64,000 nt of DNA from assembly GCF_041886205.1 (NCBI RefSeq), contig NZ_CP169029.1; one strand, given 5' to 3'. The notes beneath the pieces were generated by a model that had not been told where the DNA came from, made no database searches, and saw only the letters and a list, made by a program, of their open reading frames with translations. Shown in pieces: positions 7,676-36,275 of this stretch. The position numbers and the translations under genes are program-made. Each line of letters begins with the position of its first letter. Within the stretch, counting starts at the first letter, position 1. Source of the stretch: Escherichia coli. Lineage in GTDB: Bacteria; Pseudomonadota; Gammaproteobacteria; Enterobacterales; Enterobacteriaceae.

Positions 7676-9268
7676 ATGGCTCGACTCTTTACCCCTTCAG
7701 AATCAAAGTATTACCTGATGGCGCTGGATGCAGGTACCGGAAGTATTCGGGCTGTGATATTCGACCTGGAAGGCAATCAAATAGCAGTGGGACAGGCGGA
7801 GTGGCGGCACCTGGCAGTACCGGACGTTCCTGGTTCTATGGAATTTGATCTCAACAAAAACTGGCAACTGGCGTGTGAGTGTATGCGCCAGGCGCTGCAC
7901 AACGCCGGCATAGCCCCGGAGTATATCGCTGCCGTTTCGGCATGTTCGATGCGTGAAGGCATTGTTTTATATAACAATGAAGGAACACCGATCTGGGCCT
8001 GCGCCAATGTGGATGCCAGAGCGGCGCGCGAAGTTAGCGAACTTAAAGAACTGCACAACAATACCTTTGAAAACGAAGTTTATCGCGCGACCGGACAAAC
8101 ACTGGCTTTAAGTGCCATCCCCAGATTACTTTGGCTGGCGCACCATCGTTCCGATATTTACCGTCAGGCATCAACCATCACCATGATCAGCGACTGGCTG
8201 GCCTATATGCTCAGCGGCGAACTTGCGGTGGATCCCTCTAACGCTGGCACCACGGGACTTCTTGATCTAACCATCCGTGACTGGAAACCTGCATTGCTGG
8301 ATATGGCTGGCCTGCGTGCCGATATTCTTTCTCCTGTCAAAGAAACCGGCACATTGCTGGGCGTGGTAAGTTCACAAGCGGCGGAACTCTGCGGTCTGAA
8401 GGTGGGCACTCCGGTGGTCGTTGGAGGAGGCGACGTGCAGCTTGGTTGCCTGGGGTTAGGCATTGTGCGTCCGGCACAAACCGCGGTTCTTGGCGGCACA
8501 TTCTGGCAGCAAGTTGTAAATTTAGCCGCGCCGGTGACAGACCCAGAAATGAACGTGCGCGTTAATCCTCATGTTATTCCTGGCATGGTACAAGCTGAAT
8601 CTATAAGCTTTTTTACCGGACTCACCATGCGCTGGTTCCGCGATGCTTTCTGTGCCGAAGAAAAACTGATTGCCGAACGTTTAGGCATCGACACCTATAC
8701 GCTGCTGGAAGAGATGGCCAGTCGGGTGCCGCCTGGGTCGTGGGGCGTAATGCCGATCTTCTCCGACAGAATGCGCTTTAAAACCTGGTATCACGCTGCG
8801 CCTTCCTTTATTAATTTGTCCATTGACCTGGATAAATGTAACAAAGCGACATTGTTCCGTGCGCTGGAAGAAAATGCGGCGATTGTATCAGCGTGTAATT
8901 TGCAGCAAATTGCTGATTTCTCGAATATTCATCCCACCTCGCTGGTTTTTGCTGGCGGAGGTTCAAAAGGGAAATTATGGAGTCAAATTCTCGCTGATGT
9001 CTCGGGATTACCCGTCAATATTCCGGTAGTCAAAGAAGCCACCGCATTAGGATGTGCCATTGCAGCTGGCGTCGGTGCCGGAATTTTTTCATCAATGGCA
9101 GAAACCGGAGAACGCCTGGTTCGCTGGGAACGGACGCACACACCAGACCCGGAAAAGCATGAACTTTATCAGGATTCACGCGATAAGTGGCAGGCAGTTT
9201 ATCAGGATCAGCTGGGGCTGGTTGATCATGGACTGACGACGTCGTTATGGAAAGCGCCTGGGTTATAG
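7676..9268 (+). CDS. lsrK: LsrK, autoinducer-2 kinase (FGGY carbohydrate kinase family, 530 aa)
   Basis: FGGY-kinase-like translation; immediately downstream of lsrR. Confidence 0.9.
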
Positions 9269-31461: not shown

Positions 31462-32376
31462 ATGGGTAAAACAATCAGTATAAAGGTCCTGTTCGGTATT
31501 TATCTTCTATTAATGGCAGGCAAAGTTTTTGCCTTCAGTTGTAATGTCGATGGCGGGTCAAGTATTGGAGCAGGTACAACCTCTGTTTATGTTAATCTCG
31601 ACCCTGTAATACAGCCGGGCCAGAATCTGGTTGTAGACTTGTCTCAGCATATAAGTTGCTGGAATGATTACGGCGGCTGGTACGACACTGATCATATAAA
31701 CCTGGTACAAGGCTCAGCTTTCGCAGGCTCCCTACAGTCATATAAAGGATCGCTGTACTGGAATAATGTGACCTACCCCTTCCCGTTGACGACAAATACC
31801 AACGTATTGGATATTGGTGATAAGACACCGATGCCATTACCGTTAAAACTCTATATTACCCCAGTTGGGGCGGCCGGTGGAGTTGTCATAAAAGCGGGGG
31901 AAGTCATTGCCCGTATTCATATGTATAAAATTGCCACGTTAGGAAGCGGAAATCCGCGTAATTTTACGTGGAATATTATTTCAAATAACAGTATTGTTAT
32001 GCCAACAGGCGGCTGCACCGTTGATAGTCGTAATGTCACTGTGGATCTCCCGGACTTTCCTGGAAGCGCAGAAATACCCCTTGGCGTATATTGCTCAAGC
32101 GAACAAAAGCTCTCATTTTATCTTTCGGGTGCCACCACTGACAGTAGCCGACAAGTGTTTGCTAACACAGCACCTGATGCAACAAAAGCATCGGGAGTGG
32201 GTGTCTCTCTGATGCGTAATGGAAAAATACTGGCTACGGGAGAAAATGTCTCCCTGGGGACAGTAAATAAAAGCAAAGTACCTCTGGGTTTAAGCGCAAC
32301 CTATGGACAAACAGGAAACAAGGTTGCAGCCGGAACCGTCCAGTCGGTCATTGGTGTCACTTTTATCTATGAATAA
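31462..32376 (+). CDS. ydeQ: FimH-like two-domain fimbrial tip adhesin (F9-like operon), 304 aa
   Basis: Signal peptide, FimH-like lectin plus pilin domain length and composition; last gene of the operon. Confidence 0.8.
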
Positions 32377-32448
32377 TTGTGATTTTGATCTTAGTCTATG
32401 CGCTCCATTCACGAAAATTGCGCGGATAATTATTTTGTGAAGGCTATT

Positions 32449-32466
32449 ATCCTACACCTGTAAGAA
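32449..32466 (+). promoter_or_regulatory. EvgA box upstream of ydeP (TCCTACA-CC-TGTAAGA)
   Basis: Sequence ATCCTACACCTGTAAGAA matches the EvgA inverted-repeat consensus TTCYTACA..TGTARGAA; ydeP is a known direct EvgA target. Confidence 0.55.
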
Positions 32467-32714
32467 AATCCGCGCACAATTGAAGCCAGAGTCTTATTTT
32501 TTATATTGAAAAATATGTTAATTTAAACACTATGAGAGATGATGCTTAACTTATAGTATTTATACTAATCTATTATTTAACGATAATAGGTTAAAAATAG
32601 ATAGAGAGTAGTCCCCTACTCTTATATATCCATGTTGACGATAATCCCTTTGTATATACTGTGCATCATCGCTATTTCAAATCCTAATAATTCATTTCCA
32701 CACAGGATAAGTAG

Positions 32715-34994
32715 ATGAAGAAAAAAATTGAATCCTACCAGGGTGCTGCCGGTGGTTGGGGTGCTGTTAAATCCGTAGCGAATGCAGTACGTAAGCAGAT
32801 GGATATACGCCAGGATGTTATTGCCATGTTTGACATGAATAAGCCAGAGGGCTTTGACTGTCCGGGTTGTGCATGGCCAGATCCTAAGCACAGTGCGTCA
32901 TTCGACATTTGTGAAAACGGCGCAAAAGCAATCGCCTGGGAAGTCACGGATAAGCAGGTAAATGCCTCTTTCTTTGCTGAGAATACGGTTCAATCATTAC
33001 TTACCTGGGGAGATCACGAGCTTGAGGCTGCGGGACGTCTCACTCAGCCTTTGAAATATGATGCTGTCAGCGACTGTTACAAGCCATTAAGCTGGCAACA
33101 AGCTTTCGACGAAATTGGCGCACGCCTTCAAAGCTATAGTGATCCCAATCAGGTTGAATTCTATACTTCGGGCCGCACTTCCAATGAAGCTGCCTTTCTT
33201 TATCAGCTTTTTGCCCGTGAATACGGGAGCAATAACTTTCCCGACTGCTCCAACATGTGCCATGAACCGACCAGTGTGGGTTTGGCAGCGAGTATCGGTG
33301 TGGGTAAAGGGACTGTGTTGCTGGAAGACTTTGAGAAGTGCGATTTAGTCATTTGCATTGGGCATAACCCTGGTACAAACCACCCCCGCATGCTGACTTC
33401 GTTGCGCGCTTTAGTGAAACGGGGAGCGAAAATGATCGCCATAAACCCTCTACAGGAACGTGGTCTGGAGCGATTTACCGCACCGCAAAACCCGTTTGAA
33501 ATGCTGACGAACTCTGAGACTCAGTTGGCCAGTGCCTACTACAACGTGCGCATTGGTGGCGATATGGCGTTGCTCAAGGGGATGATGCGCCTGTTAATTG
33601 AGCGCGATGATGCTGCAAGCGCCGCAGGTCGGCCCTCATTGCTTGATGACGAATTTATTCAAACACATACCGTCGGCTTTGACGAGCTACGCCGTGACGT
33701 TCTCAATTCCGAGTGGAAAGATATCGAACGTATTTCTGGACTAAGTCAGACTCAAATCGCCGAACTGGCTGACGCATATGCCGCTGCCGAACGCACCATT
33801 ATCTGTTACGGAATGGGGATCACTCAGCACGAACATGGTACCCAGAACGTACAGCAACTGGTCAATTTGCTGTTGATGAAAGGTAACATTGGCAAGCCTG
33901 GTGCGGGTATCTGCCCACTACGTGGTCACTCTAATGTACAGGGCGACCGAACCGTCGGTATCACCGAGAAACCGTCTGCAGAGTTTCTGGCTCGCCTGGG
34001 TGAGCGCTATGGCTTCACCCCACCTCATGCACCTGGACATGCTGCAATTGCCAGCATGCAAGCAATATGTACAGGGCAGGCTCGAGCATTGATCTGCATG
34101 GGGGGCAACTTTGCACTGGCAATGCCAGATCGGGAAGCGAGCGCTGTACCGTTAACGCAATTAGATCTGGCGGTACACGTTGCCACTAAGCTTAACCGCT
34201 CTCATCTGCTGACCGCACGGCATAGCTATATTCTGCCGGTTCTGGGACGTAGCGAGATTGACATGCAAAAAAGCGGTGCGCAGGCGGTAACCGTTGAGGA
34301 TTCAATGTCGATGATTCATGCCTCGCGTGGCGTGTTAAAACCCGCCGGTGTAATGCTGAAATCAGAGTGTGCAGTGGTCGCGGGAATCGCGCAGGCAGCA
34401 CTACCCCAGAGCGTGGTAGCCTGGGAGTATCTGGTGGAAGATTATGATCGCATTCGCAATGACATTGAAGCTGTGCTGCCAGAGTTCGCCGACTATAACC
34501 AGCGCATCCGTCATCCCGGTGGTTTTCACCTGATAAATGCAGCTGCTGAAAGGCGCTGGATGACGCCGTCAGGTAAGGCTAATTTCATTACCAGCAAAGG
34601 GCTGTTAGAAGATCCCTCTTCAGCGTTTAACAGTAAGCTGGTCATGGCGACAGTACGCAGTCACGATCAGTACAACACGACGATTTATGGTATGGATGAT
34701 CGCTATCGAGGGGTATTCGGTCAACGAGATGTGGTCTTTATGAGTGCTAAACAAGCTAAAATTTGCCGTGTAAAAAACGGCGAAAGAGTTAATCTTATTG
34801 CGCTTACGCCAGACGGTAAGCGCAGCTCACGCCGCATGGATAGATTAAAAGTGGTCATTTACCCTATGGCTGACCGCTCACTGGTGACCTATTTTCCAGA
34901 ATCGAATCACATGCTAACTCTTGATAACCACGATCCATTAAGTGGCATTCCTGGTTATAAAAGTATTCCGGTTGAATTAGAACCATCAAATTAA
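32715..34994 (+). CDS. ydeP: YdeP, molybdopterin oxidoreductase-family acid-resistance protein (759 aa)
   Basis: Full-length ORF; molybdopterin oxidoreductase (formate-dehydrogenase-like) domains; position before safA-ydeO. Confidence 0.9.
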
Positions 34995-35007
34995 TTCGCC
35001 TCCTCAT

Positions 35008-35044
35008 TTCTTCTGCTGTCATCCGCACAGCAGAAGAATTTCTC
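35008..35044 (+). terminator. Putative rho-independent terminator after ydeP
   Basis: TTCTTCTGCTG ... CAGCAGAAGAA 11-bp perfect stem followed by TTTCTC. Confidence 0.55.
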
Positions 35045-35112
35045 ATTGACTATTATCGCGCAATTTGCTCACATTGATTAAATTAAACCACACACTATAA
35101 GATATAAACCTC

Positions 35113-35130
35113 TGCCTACAGCTGTAAGAA
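35113..35130 (+). promoter_or_regulatory. EvgA box upstream of safA-ydeO (GCCTACA-GC-TGTAAGA)
   Basis: TGCCTACAGCTGTAAGAA matches the EvgA inverted-repeat consensus; safA-ydeO is a known EvgA-activated operon. Confidence 0.55.
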
Positions 35131-35241
35131 ACTCCGCTCAGTACTGAAGTGCCCGTCCTATTTCCTCTTTTCTCCAGCCTGTTATATTAAGCATACTGAT
35201 TAAAGATGCTTAACGTTATTCGCTTAATAAACACATTTGAA

Positions 35242-35439
35242 ATGCATGCGACCATAGTGAAAAATAAAATCACGCAAAGAGACAACTATAAAGAGATCAT
35301 GTTTGTAATTGTGGTTGTCTTATTATTGACACTTACGTTGATAGCCATTTTTTCGGCGATTGATCAGCTGGGTATTTCAGGAATGGGTCGCATTGCAAGA
35401 GATATTACACATTTCATTATCAATAGTTTGCAAGACTGA
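35242..35439 (+). CDS. safA: SafA, small membrane connector between EvgS/EvgA and PhoQ (65 aa)
   Basis: MHATIVKNKITQRDNYKEIMFVIVVVLLLTLTLIAIFSAIDQLGISGMGRIARDITHFIINSLQD; single TM helix; ORF-track start trimmed. Confidence 0.8.
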   Translation: MHATIVKNKITQRDNYKEIMFVIVVVLLLTLTLIAIFSAIDQLGISGMGRIARDITHFIINSLQD

Positions 35440-35513
35440 AAATAAACAGCAAATTATAAATGTGAAATGTTAAAAATGTATCGATAAAAACTTTATTGTT
35501 TTAAGGAGATAAA

Positions 35514-36275
35514 ATGTCGCTCGTTTGTTCTGTTATATTTATTCATCATGCCTTCAACGCTAACATTTTAGATAAAGATTACGCCTTCTCTGACGGCGAG
35601 ATCCTGATGGTAGATAACGCTGTTCGTACGCATTTTGAACCTTATGAGCGGCATTTCAAAGAAATCGGATTTAATGAAAACACCATTAAAAAATATCTAC
35701 AATGTACTAACATTCAGACAGTGACGATGCCTGTTCCTGCGAAGTTTTTACGTGCTTCAAATGTACCGACTGGATTGCTTAATGAAATGATTGCTTATCT
35801 CAACTCGGAAGAACGCAATCATCATAATTTTTCAGAACTTTTGCTTTTTTCTTGCCTGTCTATTTTTGCCGCATGCAAAGGTTTCATTACACTATTAACT
35901 AACGGTGTGCTATCCGTTTCCGGGAAAGTGAGAAATATTGTCAATATGAAGCTGGCGCACCCATGGAAACTGAAAGATATTTGTGACTGCCTGTACATCA
36001 GTGAAAGCCTGCTCAAGAAAAAACTAAAGCAAGAGCAAACGACATTCTCACAGATTCTATTAGATGCCAGAATGCAGCACGCAAAAAATTTGATACGCGT
36101 AGAAGGTTCAGTCAATAAAATTGCCGAACAATGTGGTTATGCCAGTACATCTTATTTTATTTATGCGTTCCGCAAACATTTCGGCAATAGTCCGAAGAGA
36201 GTTTCTAAGGAGTATCGTTGTCAAAGGCACACGGGTATGAACACGGGCAACACGATGAATGCTTTAGCTATTTGA
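35514..36275 (+). CDS. ydeO: YdeO, AraC-family acid-resistance regulator (253 aa)
   Basis: C-terminal AraC HTH (...YASTSYFIYAFRKHFGNSPKR...); position after safA. Confidence 0.9.
   Translation: MSLVCSVIFIHHAFNANILDKDYAFSDGEILMVDNAVRTHFEPYERHFKEIGFNENTIKKYLQCTNIQTVTMPVPAKFLRASNVPTGLLNEMIAYLNSEERNHHNFSELLLFSCLSIFAACKGFITLLTNGVLSVSGKVRNIVNMKLAHPWKLKDICDCLYISESLLKKKLKQEQTTFSQILLDARMQHAKNLIRVEGSVNKIAEQCGYASTSYFIYAFRKHFGNSPKRVSKEYRCQRHTGMNTGNTMNALAI

Follow-up and report, generated by a model that had tools for sequence, protein, structure and literature searches.

A Shared, Probably Old Promoter Module of about 104 bp Upstream of ydeP and safA-ydeO in Escherichia coli

How do two unrelated transcription units come to obey one activator? 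The question is raised by a 64-kb stretch of an Escherichia coli chromosome (contig NZ_CP169029.1), called the window below, which over a test stretch is 100% identical to strain wlxctx60 and about 97.5% identical to K-12-type strains. It carries ydeP and, 2.66 kb away, the regulator operon safA-ydeO. The identity of these genes is taken from the annotation, and both units are described in the literature as activated by the response regulator EvgA (PMC5706723, PMC4283999, PMC11210196). An earlier note on this DNA had aligned their promoters over about 35 bp around the EvgA boxes and proposed a duplicated cassette, consisting of box and downstream core promoter, rather than two sites that evolved independently.

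The answer favoured here, with a probability of about 0.72, is that the promoters of ydeP and safA-ydeO are paralogues, each descended from a single EvgA-dependent module of about 104 bp that was duplicated long ago and has been held by selection.

Extent of the Similarity

The two promoters were aligned without gaps, with their EvgA boxes in register. Offsets are counted from the first base of the box, which is offset 0. The parts of the alignment are the following.

32449..32552, plus strand: ydeP copy of the cassette, 104 bp, 68/104 identical to the safA copy, lying at -266 to -163 from the ydeP start codon
35113..35216, plus strand: safA copy of the cassette, 104 bp, lying at -129 to -26 from the safA start codon
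32449..32466, plus strand: EvgA box of ydeP, 18 bp, ATCCTACACCTGTAAGAA, offsets 0-17, an inverted repeat of the form TTCYTACA-NN-TGTARGAA
35113..35130, plus strand: EvgA box of safA-ydeO, 18 bp, TGCCTACAGCTGTAAGAA
32467..32485, plus strand: 19-bp extension of ydeP, AATCCGCGCACAATTGAAG, relatively G+C-rich, between the box and the -35 zone
35131..35149, plus strand: 19-bp extension of safA, ACTCCGCTCAGTACTGAAG, 14/19 identical to that of ydeP

The 18-bp EvgA inverted repeat TTCYTACA-NN-TGTARGAA was reportedly described by Masuda and Church in 2003 and by Itou and colleagues in 2009. In the window, only the ydeP and safA boxes match CCTACANNTGTAAGAA without a mismatch. The K-12 copies of the box score 14-15/16.

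The similarity reaches well past the box, as the earlier note had seen. Each of the 35-mers compared there occurs once in the window, the ydeP one at 32451-32485 as given, the safA one at 35115-35149, a single base further right than given. They agree at 29/35 positions. Alignable as they are, their length of about 35 bp falls far short of the actual block, which is gap-free over the whole cassette and includes 53/86 identical positions 3' of the box. A proper alignment with gaps might have confined the similarity to the box; in fact it extends 86 bp past the box and needs no gaps.

Dinucleotide-preserving shuffles of these 86 bp give 24.1 +/- 3.9 identities, with a maximum of 39 in 5000, against the 53 observed (z = 7.4). 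When the whole window is scanned on both strands (about 128,000 positions), the top match of each 86-mer is the other copy, with 53 identities against 45 or 40 for the runner-up. The K-12 copies likewise agree at 53/86 positions, and those of the divergent lineage L006, described below, at 49/86.

Identity is 22-28% upstream of the box in the same register, 83% in the box, 74% at offsets 18-36, 52% at offsets 37-59, 52% at offsets 60-84, 74% at offsets 85-103, and 24-36% beyond offset 104. The block therefore begins abruptly at the box and fades out on its 3' side near +104. Between these limits, the conserved islands are offsets 18-36 (AAnTCCGCnCAnnAnTGAAG), 41-50 ((A)GTCYTATTT), 67-80 (TGTTAwwTTAAnCA), 84-86 (TGA), and 91-101 (AGATGCTTAAC). 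The G+C content over offsets 42-104 is 21-35%.

The Core Promoter

The part of the block 3' of the extension contains what appears to be a complete core promoter in each copy.

32490..32501, plus strand: AGTCTTATTT of ydeP with a weak -35 zone (ATTTTT), offsets 41-52
35154..35165, plus strand: CGTCCTATTT of safA with a weak -35 zone (ATTTCC)
32516..32524, plus strand: putative extended -10 of ydeP, TGTTAATTT (TGnTAnnTT), offsets 67-75, 7 nt 5' of the putative start
35180..35188, plus strand: putative extended -10 of safA, TGTTATATT, the sole strong -10 candidate in the safA region
32532..32532, plus strand: putative transcription start of ydeP, an A at offset 83
32532..32552, plus strand: initial transcribed region of ydeP, +1 to +21, containing the shared 10-mer GATGCTTAAC at 32541-32550
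35195..35216, plus strand: predicted transcription start of safA (about 35195) and its initial transcribed region, placed by homology to ydeP and by distance from the -10

The start of ydeP can be placed indirectly. A probe boundary in a methods section gives a leader of 178 nt (PMC11210196), and the K-12 ATG lies 261 nt from the start of the box, so that +1 would fall at offset 83 (261 - 178). This is 7 nt after TGnTAATTT and supports that -10. Counted from that start, the centre of the box stands at -74.5, the extension at about -65 to -47, and the shared 10-mer at +10 to +19. In the window, the safA copy has an identical 10-mer (35205-35214); K-12 safA has GATTTTTAAC in its place. Four genome-wide resources that map transcription start sites or 3' ends gave no entry for these genes.

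Two details of the earlier note need correction after this placement. The conserved TGAAG, which the note proposed to check for the -10 element, falls at -51 to -47 given the 178-nt leader and is neither a -10 nor the -35 of the conserved promoter. Likewise, the core promoter lies outside the 35-bp block that was supposed to contain it, since the conserved -10, TGnTAnnTT, stands at offsets 67-75.

Among 47 distinct 110-nt haplotypes (21 ydeP-type and 26 safA-type), TG at 67-68, TA at 70-71, and TT at 74-75 are fixed. Going by sequence, these positions are the signature of an extended -10 (TGnTAnnnT). In the element at offsets 41-52, GTC and ATTT are fixed in every haplotype of both paralogues. 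The -10 hexamer matches the consensus at 5/6 positions in safA and at 3/6 in ydeP, where T-12, A-11, and T-7 are kept. Both promoters combine a TG, one base 5' of the -10 hexamer, with a weak -35, as is characteristic of the extended -10 class, in which the -35 is weak or absent. L006 keeps the element as TGCTAATTT in ydeP and as TGCTATATT in safA.

A better-scoring sigma-70 match in ydeP, TTGAAG-16-TATATT, lies at 32480-32507, 5' of the proposed -10. It was rejected as a shared or conserved promoter because its -10 (TATATT, 32502-32507) is TCTTTT in safA and TTTATT in L006. It could be a minor promoter of ydeP only.

Other EvgA Promoters

If EvgA binding by itself had shaped the block, other EvgA targets should show it too. 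The other K-12 EvgA boxes compared were those of emrK, frc, yfdX (two boxes), and yegR, each oriented toward its gene and set in the same register. They agree with ydeP or safA at 3-10/19 positions in the extension and at 16-36/86 positions overall, compared with 53/86 for the pair. A profile hidden Markov model (nhmmer) of the non-box part, built from 36 haplotypes, recovered none of emrK, frc, yfdX, and yegR; its best match (E = 0.3) was in an unrelated place. Alignment with other EvgA targets, emrK and yfdX among them, thus bears out that the long similarity is specific to the ydeP/safA pair.

What the emrKY, yfdX, frc/yfdWUVE, and yegR promoters have in common with ydeP and safA is the 18-bp box and the distance from box to -10. 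In 5/6 EvgA promoters of K-12, a -10-like hexamer starts at offset 69-71 (P = 3e-4 post hoc, 0.03 once the choice of offset range is corrected for). A single architecture, a box near -74.5 with a weak -35, therefore seems to serve the regulon, and only ydeP and safA share the sequence that fills it. Since the other promoters share box and geometry but not sequence, EvgA binding alone does not explain the block. For the same reason, the extension was rejected as part of a longer EvgA site, being absent from the other EvgA promoters. A wider cassette family that includes emrK, frc, yfdX, and yegR was rejected because the profile did not recover them.

The other promoters contain only local echoes of the 86-bp sequence. 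In emrK, AGTCCT stands at offset 41. In yegR (8307-8431 of the K-12 locus L004, minus strand), TTA(T)ATTTAAACACTA(T)GAGAG is shared with window 32517-32538 around the -10 and +1. This match of 20/22 positions has two 1-nt gaps, and its distance from the box differs by about 4 bp between the two promoters (z = 3.9, 1/300 shuffles); after 36 pair comparisons, it is no more than suggestive. The frc promoter (15507-15524 of the K-12 locus L001) and the proximal box of yfdX (16501-16518) have the 10-mer CTCTCTGATT at exactly the same offset, 40-49, which may make them another pair of related promoters, though a weaker one.

A third copy of the cassette was also sought. In a metagenome pattern scan, all 157 copies found are of the ydeP type or the safA type. 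A blastn search against 5,426 E. coli genomes gave one place per genome, but was too insensitive to find the known paralogue.

Conservation in a Divergent Lineage

A scan for YdeP relatives yielded a genome in which both promoters can be compared at a greater distance, 'E. coli' SCPM-O-B-8794 (NZ_JAATUR010000028.1, here L006). Its ydeP is 88% identical to that of the window in DNA sequence and 61% identical at four-fold degenerate sites, which is taken as the neutral level. Its safA protein is strongly diverged. L006 has the look of a cryptic Escherichia clade that carries the label E. coli; if it is one, ydeP-safA-ydeO also occurs outside E. coli in the strict sense. Both evgAS and safA-ydeO have been reported to be E. 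coli-specific (PMC5706723).

For ydeP, identity to L006 is 0.59 upstream of the box (with 22 gapped columns), 0.94 in the box, 0.83 at offsets 18-41, 0.85 at offsets 42-82, 1.00 at +1 to +21 (21/21), and 0.77 in the rest of the leader. For safA, the corresponding values are 0.66 upstream, 0.89 in the box, 0.79 at offsets 18-41, 0.75 from offset 42 to the base before +1, 0.87 in the initial transcribed 21 nt or so, and 0.66 in the rest of the leader. Judged by these values, the whole cassette is under purifying selection in both copies, whereas the DNA directly 5' of the box stands at the neutral level. The 5' boundary of the constraint is also the 5' boundary of the paralogy. In ydeP, the stretch from +1 to +21 is 100% conserved across about 40% neutral divergence, and it is largely common to safA.

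Variation within each family can be read from 165 copies (86 ydeP-type and 79 safA-type), whose sources were metagenome contigs, loci of reference genomes, and the window itself. Positions at which the paralogues agree are over-represented among those invariant within each family (odds ratio 2.6, p = 0.046). Among the 26 distinct safA haplotypes of 110 nt, the extension varies at only 3 positions, offsets 24, 29, and 31. A minor ydeP lineage, seen in 3 metagenome haplotypes, has TTAACG in place of TTGAAG at offsets 31-36; TGAAG is therefore not invariant even among ydeP copies.

The comparison also dates the two copies relative to each other. Orthologues agree with L006 at 76/86 positions for ydeP and at 68/86 for safA. 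Paralogues agree at 49-53/86, whether compared within a genome or across genomes. Because orthologues are closer than paralogues, the copies split before the E. coli and L006 lineages did. Gene conversion between the copies was considered and rejected, as there is no excess of similarity within genomes.

How the Module May Work

Both copies appear to be built from the same parts, in identical order and with identical spacing. These would be the box, a 24-bp relatively G+C-rich spacer, AGTCYTATTT with the weak -35, the extended -10, the start, and about 21 transcribed bases. Sequence, conservation, and the literature together suggest a mechanism of activation. In mild acid, a phosphorylated EvgA dimer (EvgA~P) would bind the box at -74.5, as the box itself and the literature indicate. 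From this upstream position, which resembles that of a class I activator, EvgA~P would then recruit RNA polymerase to the extended -10 promoter, as sequence and conservation suggest. The poor -35 would make the core promoter too weak to fire unaided.

The spacer is harder to account for. One explanation, which we consider unlikely and which is compatible with duplication, is that the extension is a secondary, low-affinity EvgA site. Further EvgA~P dimers would then bind at intervals of about 21-22 bp as far as the -35, in the manner of BvgA. There is a precedent in BvgA, whose head-to-head dimers are placed 22 bp apart from a high-affinity inverted repeat to a poor -35, with weak sites that are unpredictable from sequence (PMC7250471). 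The primary site at -74.5, the poor -35, and the selection on the 24-bp spacer (0.83 and 0.79, compared with 0.61 for neutral sites) would suit such an arrangement. Moreover, CA at offsets 26-27 is fixed in both paralogues, and TG at 32-33 is the consensus in both, although only T32 is fixed and G33 varies in rare ydeP haplotypes. The centre of symmetry of this CA/TG pair is offset 29.5, which is 21 bp away from that of the box, and TCYTA recurs at offset 43, 42 bp from the TCYTA of the left half-site.

Against a secondary site, a weight matrix made from the 14 primary half-sites finds nothing of at least 4 bits at offsets 18-60 in either ydeP or safA. The other EvgA promoters have no sequence similarity in this zone, and no experimental report was found of EvgA oligomerising along DNA. 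The spacer (-65 to -42) could be a site for a secondary EvgA~P dimer, with EvgA polymerising from -74.5 to the poor -35. A third half-site at offset 42 (GTCYTATT) was rejected as unsupported by the half-site matrix.

The initial transcribed region raises a similar question. The bases from +1 to +21 could be an operator, or an RNA element, for a negative input common to both units, such as feedback by PhoP or YdeO. Rfam covariance models gave no match at E <= 1 in 32300-35600. Going one step further, the cassette might be a complete, portable EvgA switch, whose conserved spacer and initial transcribed region carry undescribed functions. We regard this broader proposal as quite doubtful. If it were true, the weak echoes in emrK and yegR would be traces of a single module that had been copied again and again to build up a large part of the EvgA regulon.

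Several open reading frames touch the region. In safA, an in-frame upstream ATG at window 35206-35208, inside GATGCTTAAC, would add 12 codons to SafA; it lies only about 11 nt from the predicted start. K-12 and the commonest metagenome haplotype have GATTTTTAAC, without this ATG, and both alleles are common in E. coli. The putative ydeP transcript starts with AUG (AUGAGAGAUGAUGCUUAA, within 32532-32549), which gives a possible leaderless ORF of 5 codons. A second ydeP mini-ORF, ATGATGCTTAACTTATAG (MMLNL*), is closed in this strain and reads through in K-12 (TTATCG). A conserved leader peptide at the shared ATG was rejected, because in K-12 the MMLNL* frame of ydeP is open at that stop and safA lacks the ATG. 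The ydeP mini-ORFs are thus not conserved as ORFs, yet these 21 nt are 100% conserved compared with L006.

A dyad is also found here. In safA of this strain, at 35187-35214, a perfect 8-bp inverted repeat straddles the predicted start, its arms being TTAAGCAT (offsets 74-81) and ATGCTTAA (offsets 94-101). The ydeP copy (32523-32550) keeps 6/8, and the repeat is weaker in K-12 safA. Read by eye, the safA dyad could be operator-like or due to chance.

Duplication or Convergence

A duplicated cassette, rather than two independently evolved sites, is supported by a similarity that runs for 104 bp without a gap, at the same spacing, and is specific to the pair. In the duplication model, one module was copied within the E. 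coli lineage and came to stand in front of another, unrelated unit at a distance of 2.66 kb. Copying would have put an effector (ydeP) and regulators (safA and ydeO) both under EvgA. Afterwards, unconstrained positions would have been randomised, and selection would have kept about 60% of the positions identical.

The distribution of ydeP bears on this history. The YdeP relatives in the scan came from E. coli-type genomes and, apart from these, from only a few further members of the Enterobacterales. None of the reference genomes of other Escherichia species yielded a copy of ydeP. The nearest foreign YdeP, 85% identical in amino acid sequence, is that of Edwardsiella spp. (L007, L008, and L010). 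The region upstream of the Edwardsiella ydeP is short, G+C-rich, and unrelated, with no box and no cassette. This patchy distribution suggests horizontal transfer of ydeP.

Several points weigh against the duplication model. The 33 mismatches between the copies consist of 10 transitions and 23 transversions, and the transition fraction expected for unrelated DNA is 0.315. The mismatched sites are therefore saturated, and the transition/transversion signature is uninformative on ancestry. Identity is found mainly at constrained positions, and convergence under shared regulators would give the same pattern. Both PhoP and YdeO have been reported to repress PsafA, and YdeO to repress ydeP indirectly (bioRxiv 10.64898/2026.05.06.723403; PMC11210196); these common inputs may fix some of the shared positions. 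No trace of the copying itself was seen, whether a donor, a target duplication, or a mobile-element remnant. The start of ydeP is placed through a published probe boundary, and that of safA is predicted only. Finally, TTGAAG-16-TATATT could be a second ydeP promoter.

These points lead to the convergence model, in which independent promoters grew alike because the same proteins (EvgA, RNA polymerase, and PhoP, YdeO, or H-NS) bind them at the same positions. The concentration of identity at positions invariant within families, the full randomisation of the mismatches, and the repression just described all agree with it, as does the box-to-(-10) distance common to all EvgA promoters. However, some 31 identities above chance without an indel would require three to four shared sites at identical spacing, and four other EvgA promoters have the same geometry with unrelated sequence. 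A YdeO ChIP-chip study lists seven target promoters, and ydeP and safA appear nowhere in the text of the paper (PMC4222967). An informal inspection of the block by eye, with no scan run, gave no convincing PhoP, YdeO, or GAD box. Convergence is accordingly judged improbable.

Chance resemblance between two AT-rich intergenic regions built on the same box has a negligible probability: although short AT-rich matches are common in such DNA and several repeat pairs of about 15-20 nt occur within 3 kb, it is refuted by the shuffles, by flanks at background identity in the same register, by the reciprocal best matches, and by the repetition of the pattern in K-12 and L006.

Duplication thus remains the preferred model. 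With about 31 identities above chance over 86 bp, no indel, and four promoters of the same architecture but other sequence, descent from one module is more parsimonious than convergence; the argument is one of parsimony from sequence, and falls short of proof.

Comparison with Known Systems

The ydeP/safA pair is an instance of promoter reuse and propagation, which is a known process. A full-text literature search found no relevant paper joining ydeP, safA, promoter, and duplication; the key papers on the EvgA box are outside that search, and the longer similarity may have been noticed earlier.

An example of such propagation is provided by the putative mobile promoters of Matus-Garcia, Nijveen and van Passel (2012), defined as at least 50 nt at 80% identity or more, located at -150 to -50 of the translation start (PMC3488235). 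As in those promoters, homologous upstream DNA precedes non-homologous coding sequences, since the YdeP and SafA proteins are unrelated (E = 9.9), and the flanks are at background. Unlike them, the best 50-nt window between the ydeP and safA copies has 37/50 identical positions, or 74%, which is below the 80% threshold. The ydeP copy, at 163-266 nt from its start codon, is also outside the -150 to -50 range, and the safA copy overlaps it only in part. The cassette would therefore not have been catalogued there. The ydeP and safA copies form an old, diverged family of two members, rather than a recent or multi-copy family. Plausibly, such a cassette wires an acquired gene into an existing regulon.

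The second comparison is with the BvgA system of Bordetella. The BvgA half-site is similar to the EvgA half-site, and the primary BvgA site of Pfha lies at -88.5; the primary site of ydeP and safA, at -74.5, is nearer the start. Like the BvgA promoters Pfha, Pfim3, and Pptx (PMC7250471), the ydeP and safA promoters have an upstream high-affinity inverted repeat and a poor -35, and their activator is a homologue from the same family. Between the site and the -35, they resemble BvgA promoters in having what would be a functional stretch. They differ in that the half-site matrix finds no further EvgA dimer sites.

For the acid-resistance network, nothing known is overturned, and the case is a tidy and unsurprising one of promoter reuse. 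Copying a whole module, in contrast to the base-by-base evolution of binding sites, is probably how one two-component system came to control both a presumably horizontally acquired effector (ydeP) and a regulator operon (safA-ydeO). The proposed promoter map, with the box at -74.5, an extended -10, a poor -35, and conserved stretches at -65 to -42 and +1 to +21, makes EvgA activation and the PhoP/YdeO feedback testable by mutagenesis.

Gene Context and Minor Observations

The genes and the terminator around the two cassettes are arranged as follows.

31462-32376, plus strand: ydeQ, from the annotation
32715-34994, plus strand: ydeP coding sequence, 759 amino acids, downstream of the first cassette copy, with a leader of 183 nt
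35008-35038, plus strand: predicted terminator hairpin of ydeP, strong, standing between ydeP and the safA cassette
35242-35439, plus strand: safA coding sequence, 65 amino acids, downstream of the second cassette copy
35514-36275, plus strand: ydeO, the next gene after safA

In the metagenome contig CDZJ01014459.1, the cassettes are 1398 bp apart, compared with the usual distance of about 2660 bp. Recombination between the cassettes that removes ydeP was considered for this contig and rejected, because the shorter distance results from the loss of about 1.3 kb inside ydeP (window 32920 to 34210).

The ydeP-safA region of E. coli is also found on a 13-kb contig of a metagenome-assembled genome labelled Candidatus Nanosynbacter (JARKOR010000108.1). 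Both promoter regions are exactly as in K-12, and its YdeP is 100% identical to the protein of the window. The contig is almost certainly E. coli contamination of the bin.

Just 5' of the safA box, window 35068-35086 is 84% complementary over 19 nt to the ydeP -10/+1 segment at 32518-32536 (TTAATTTAAACACTATGAG). By a rough estimate, several such AT-rich matches are expected in 3 kb, and the complementarity is probably without meaning.

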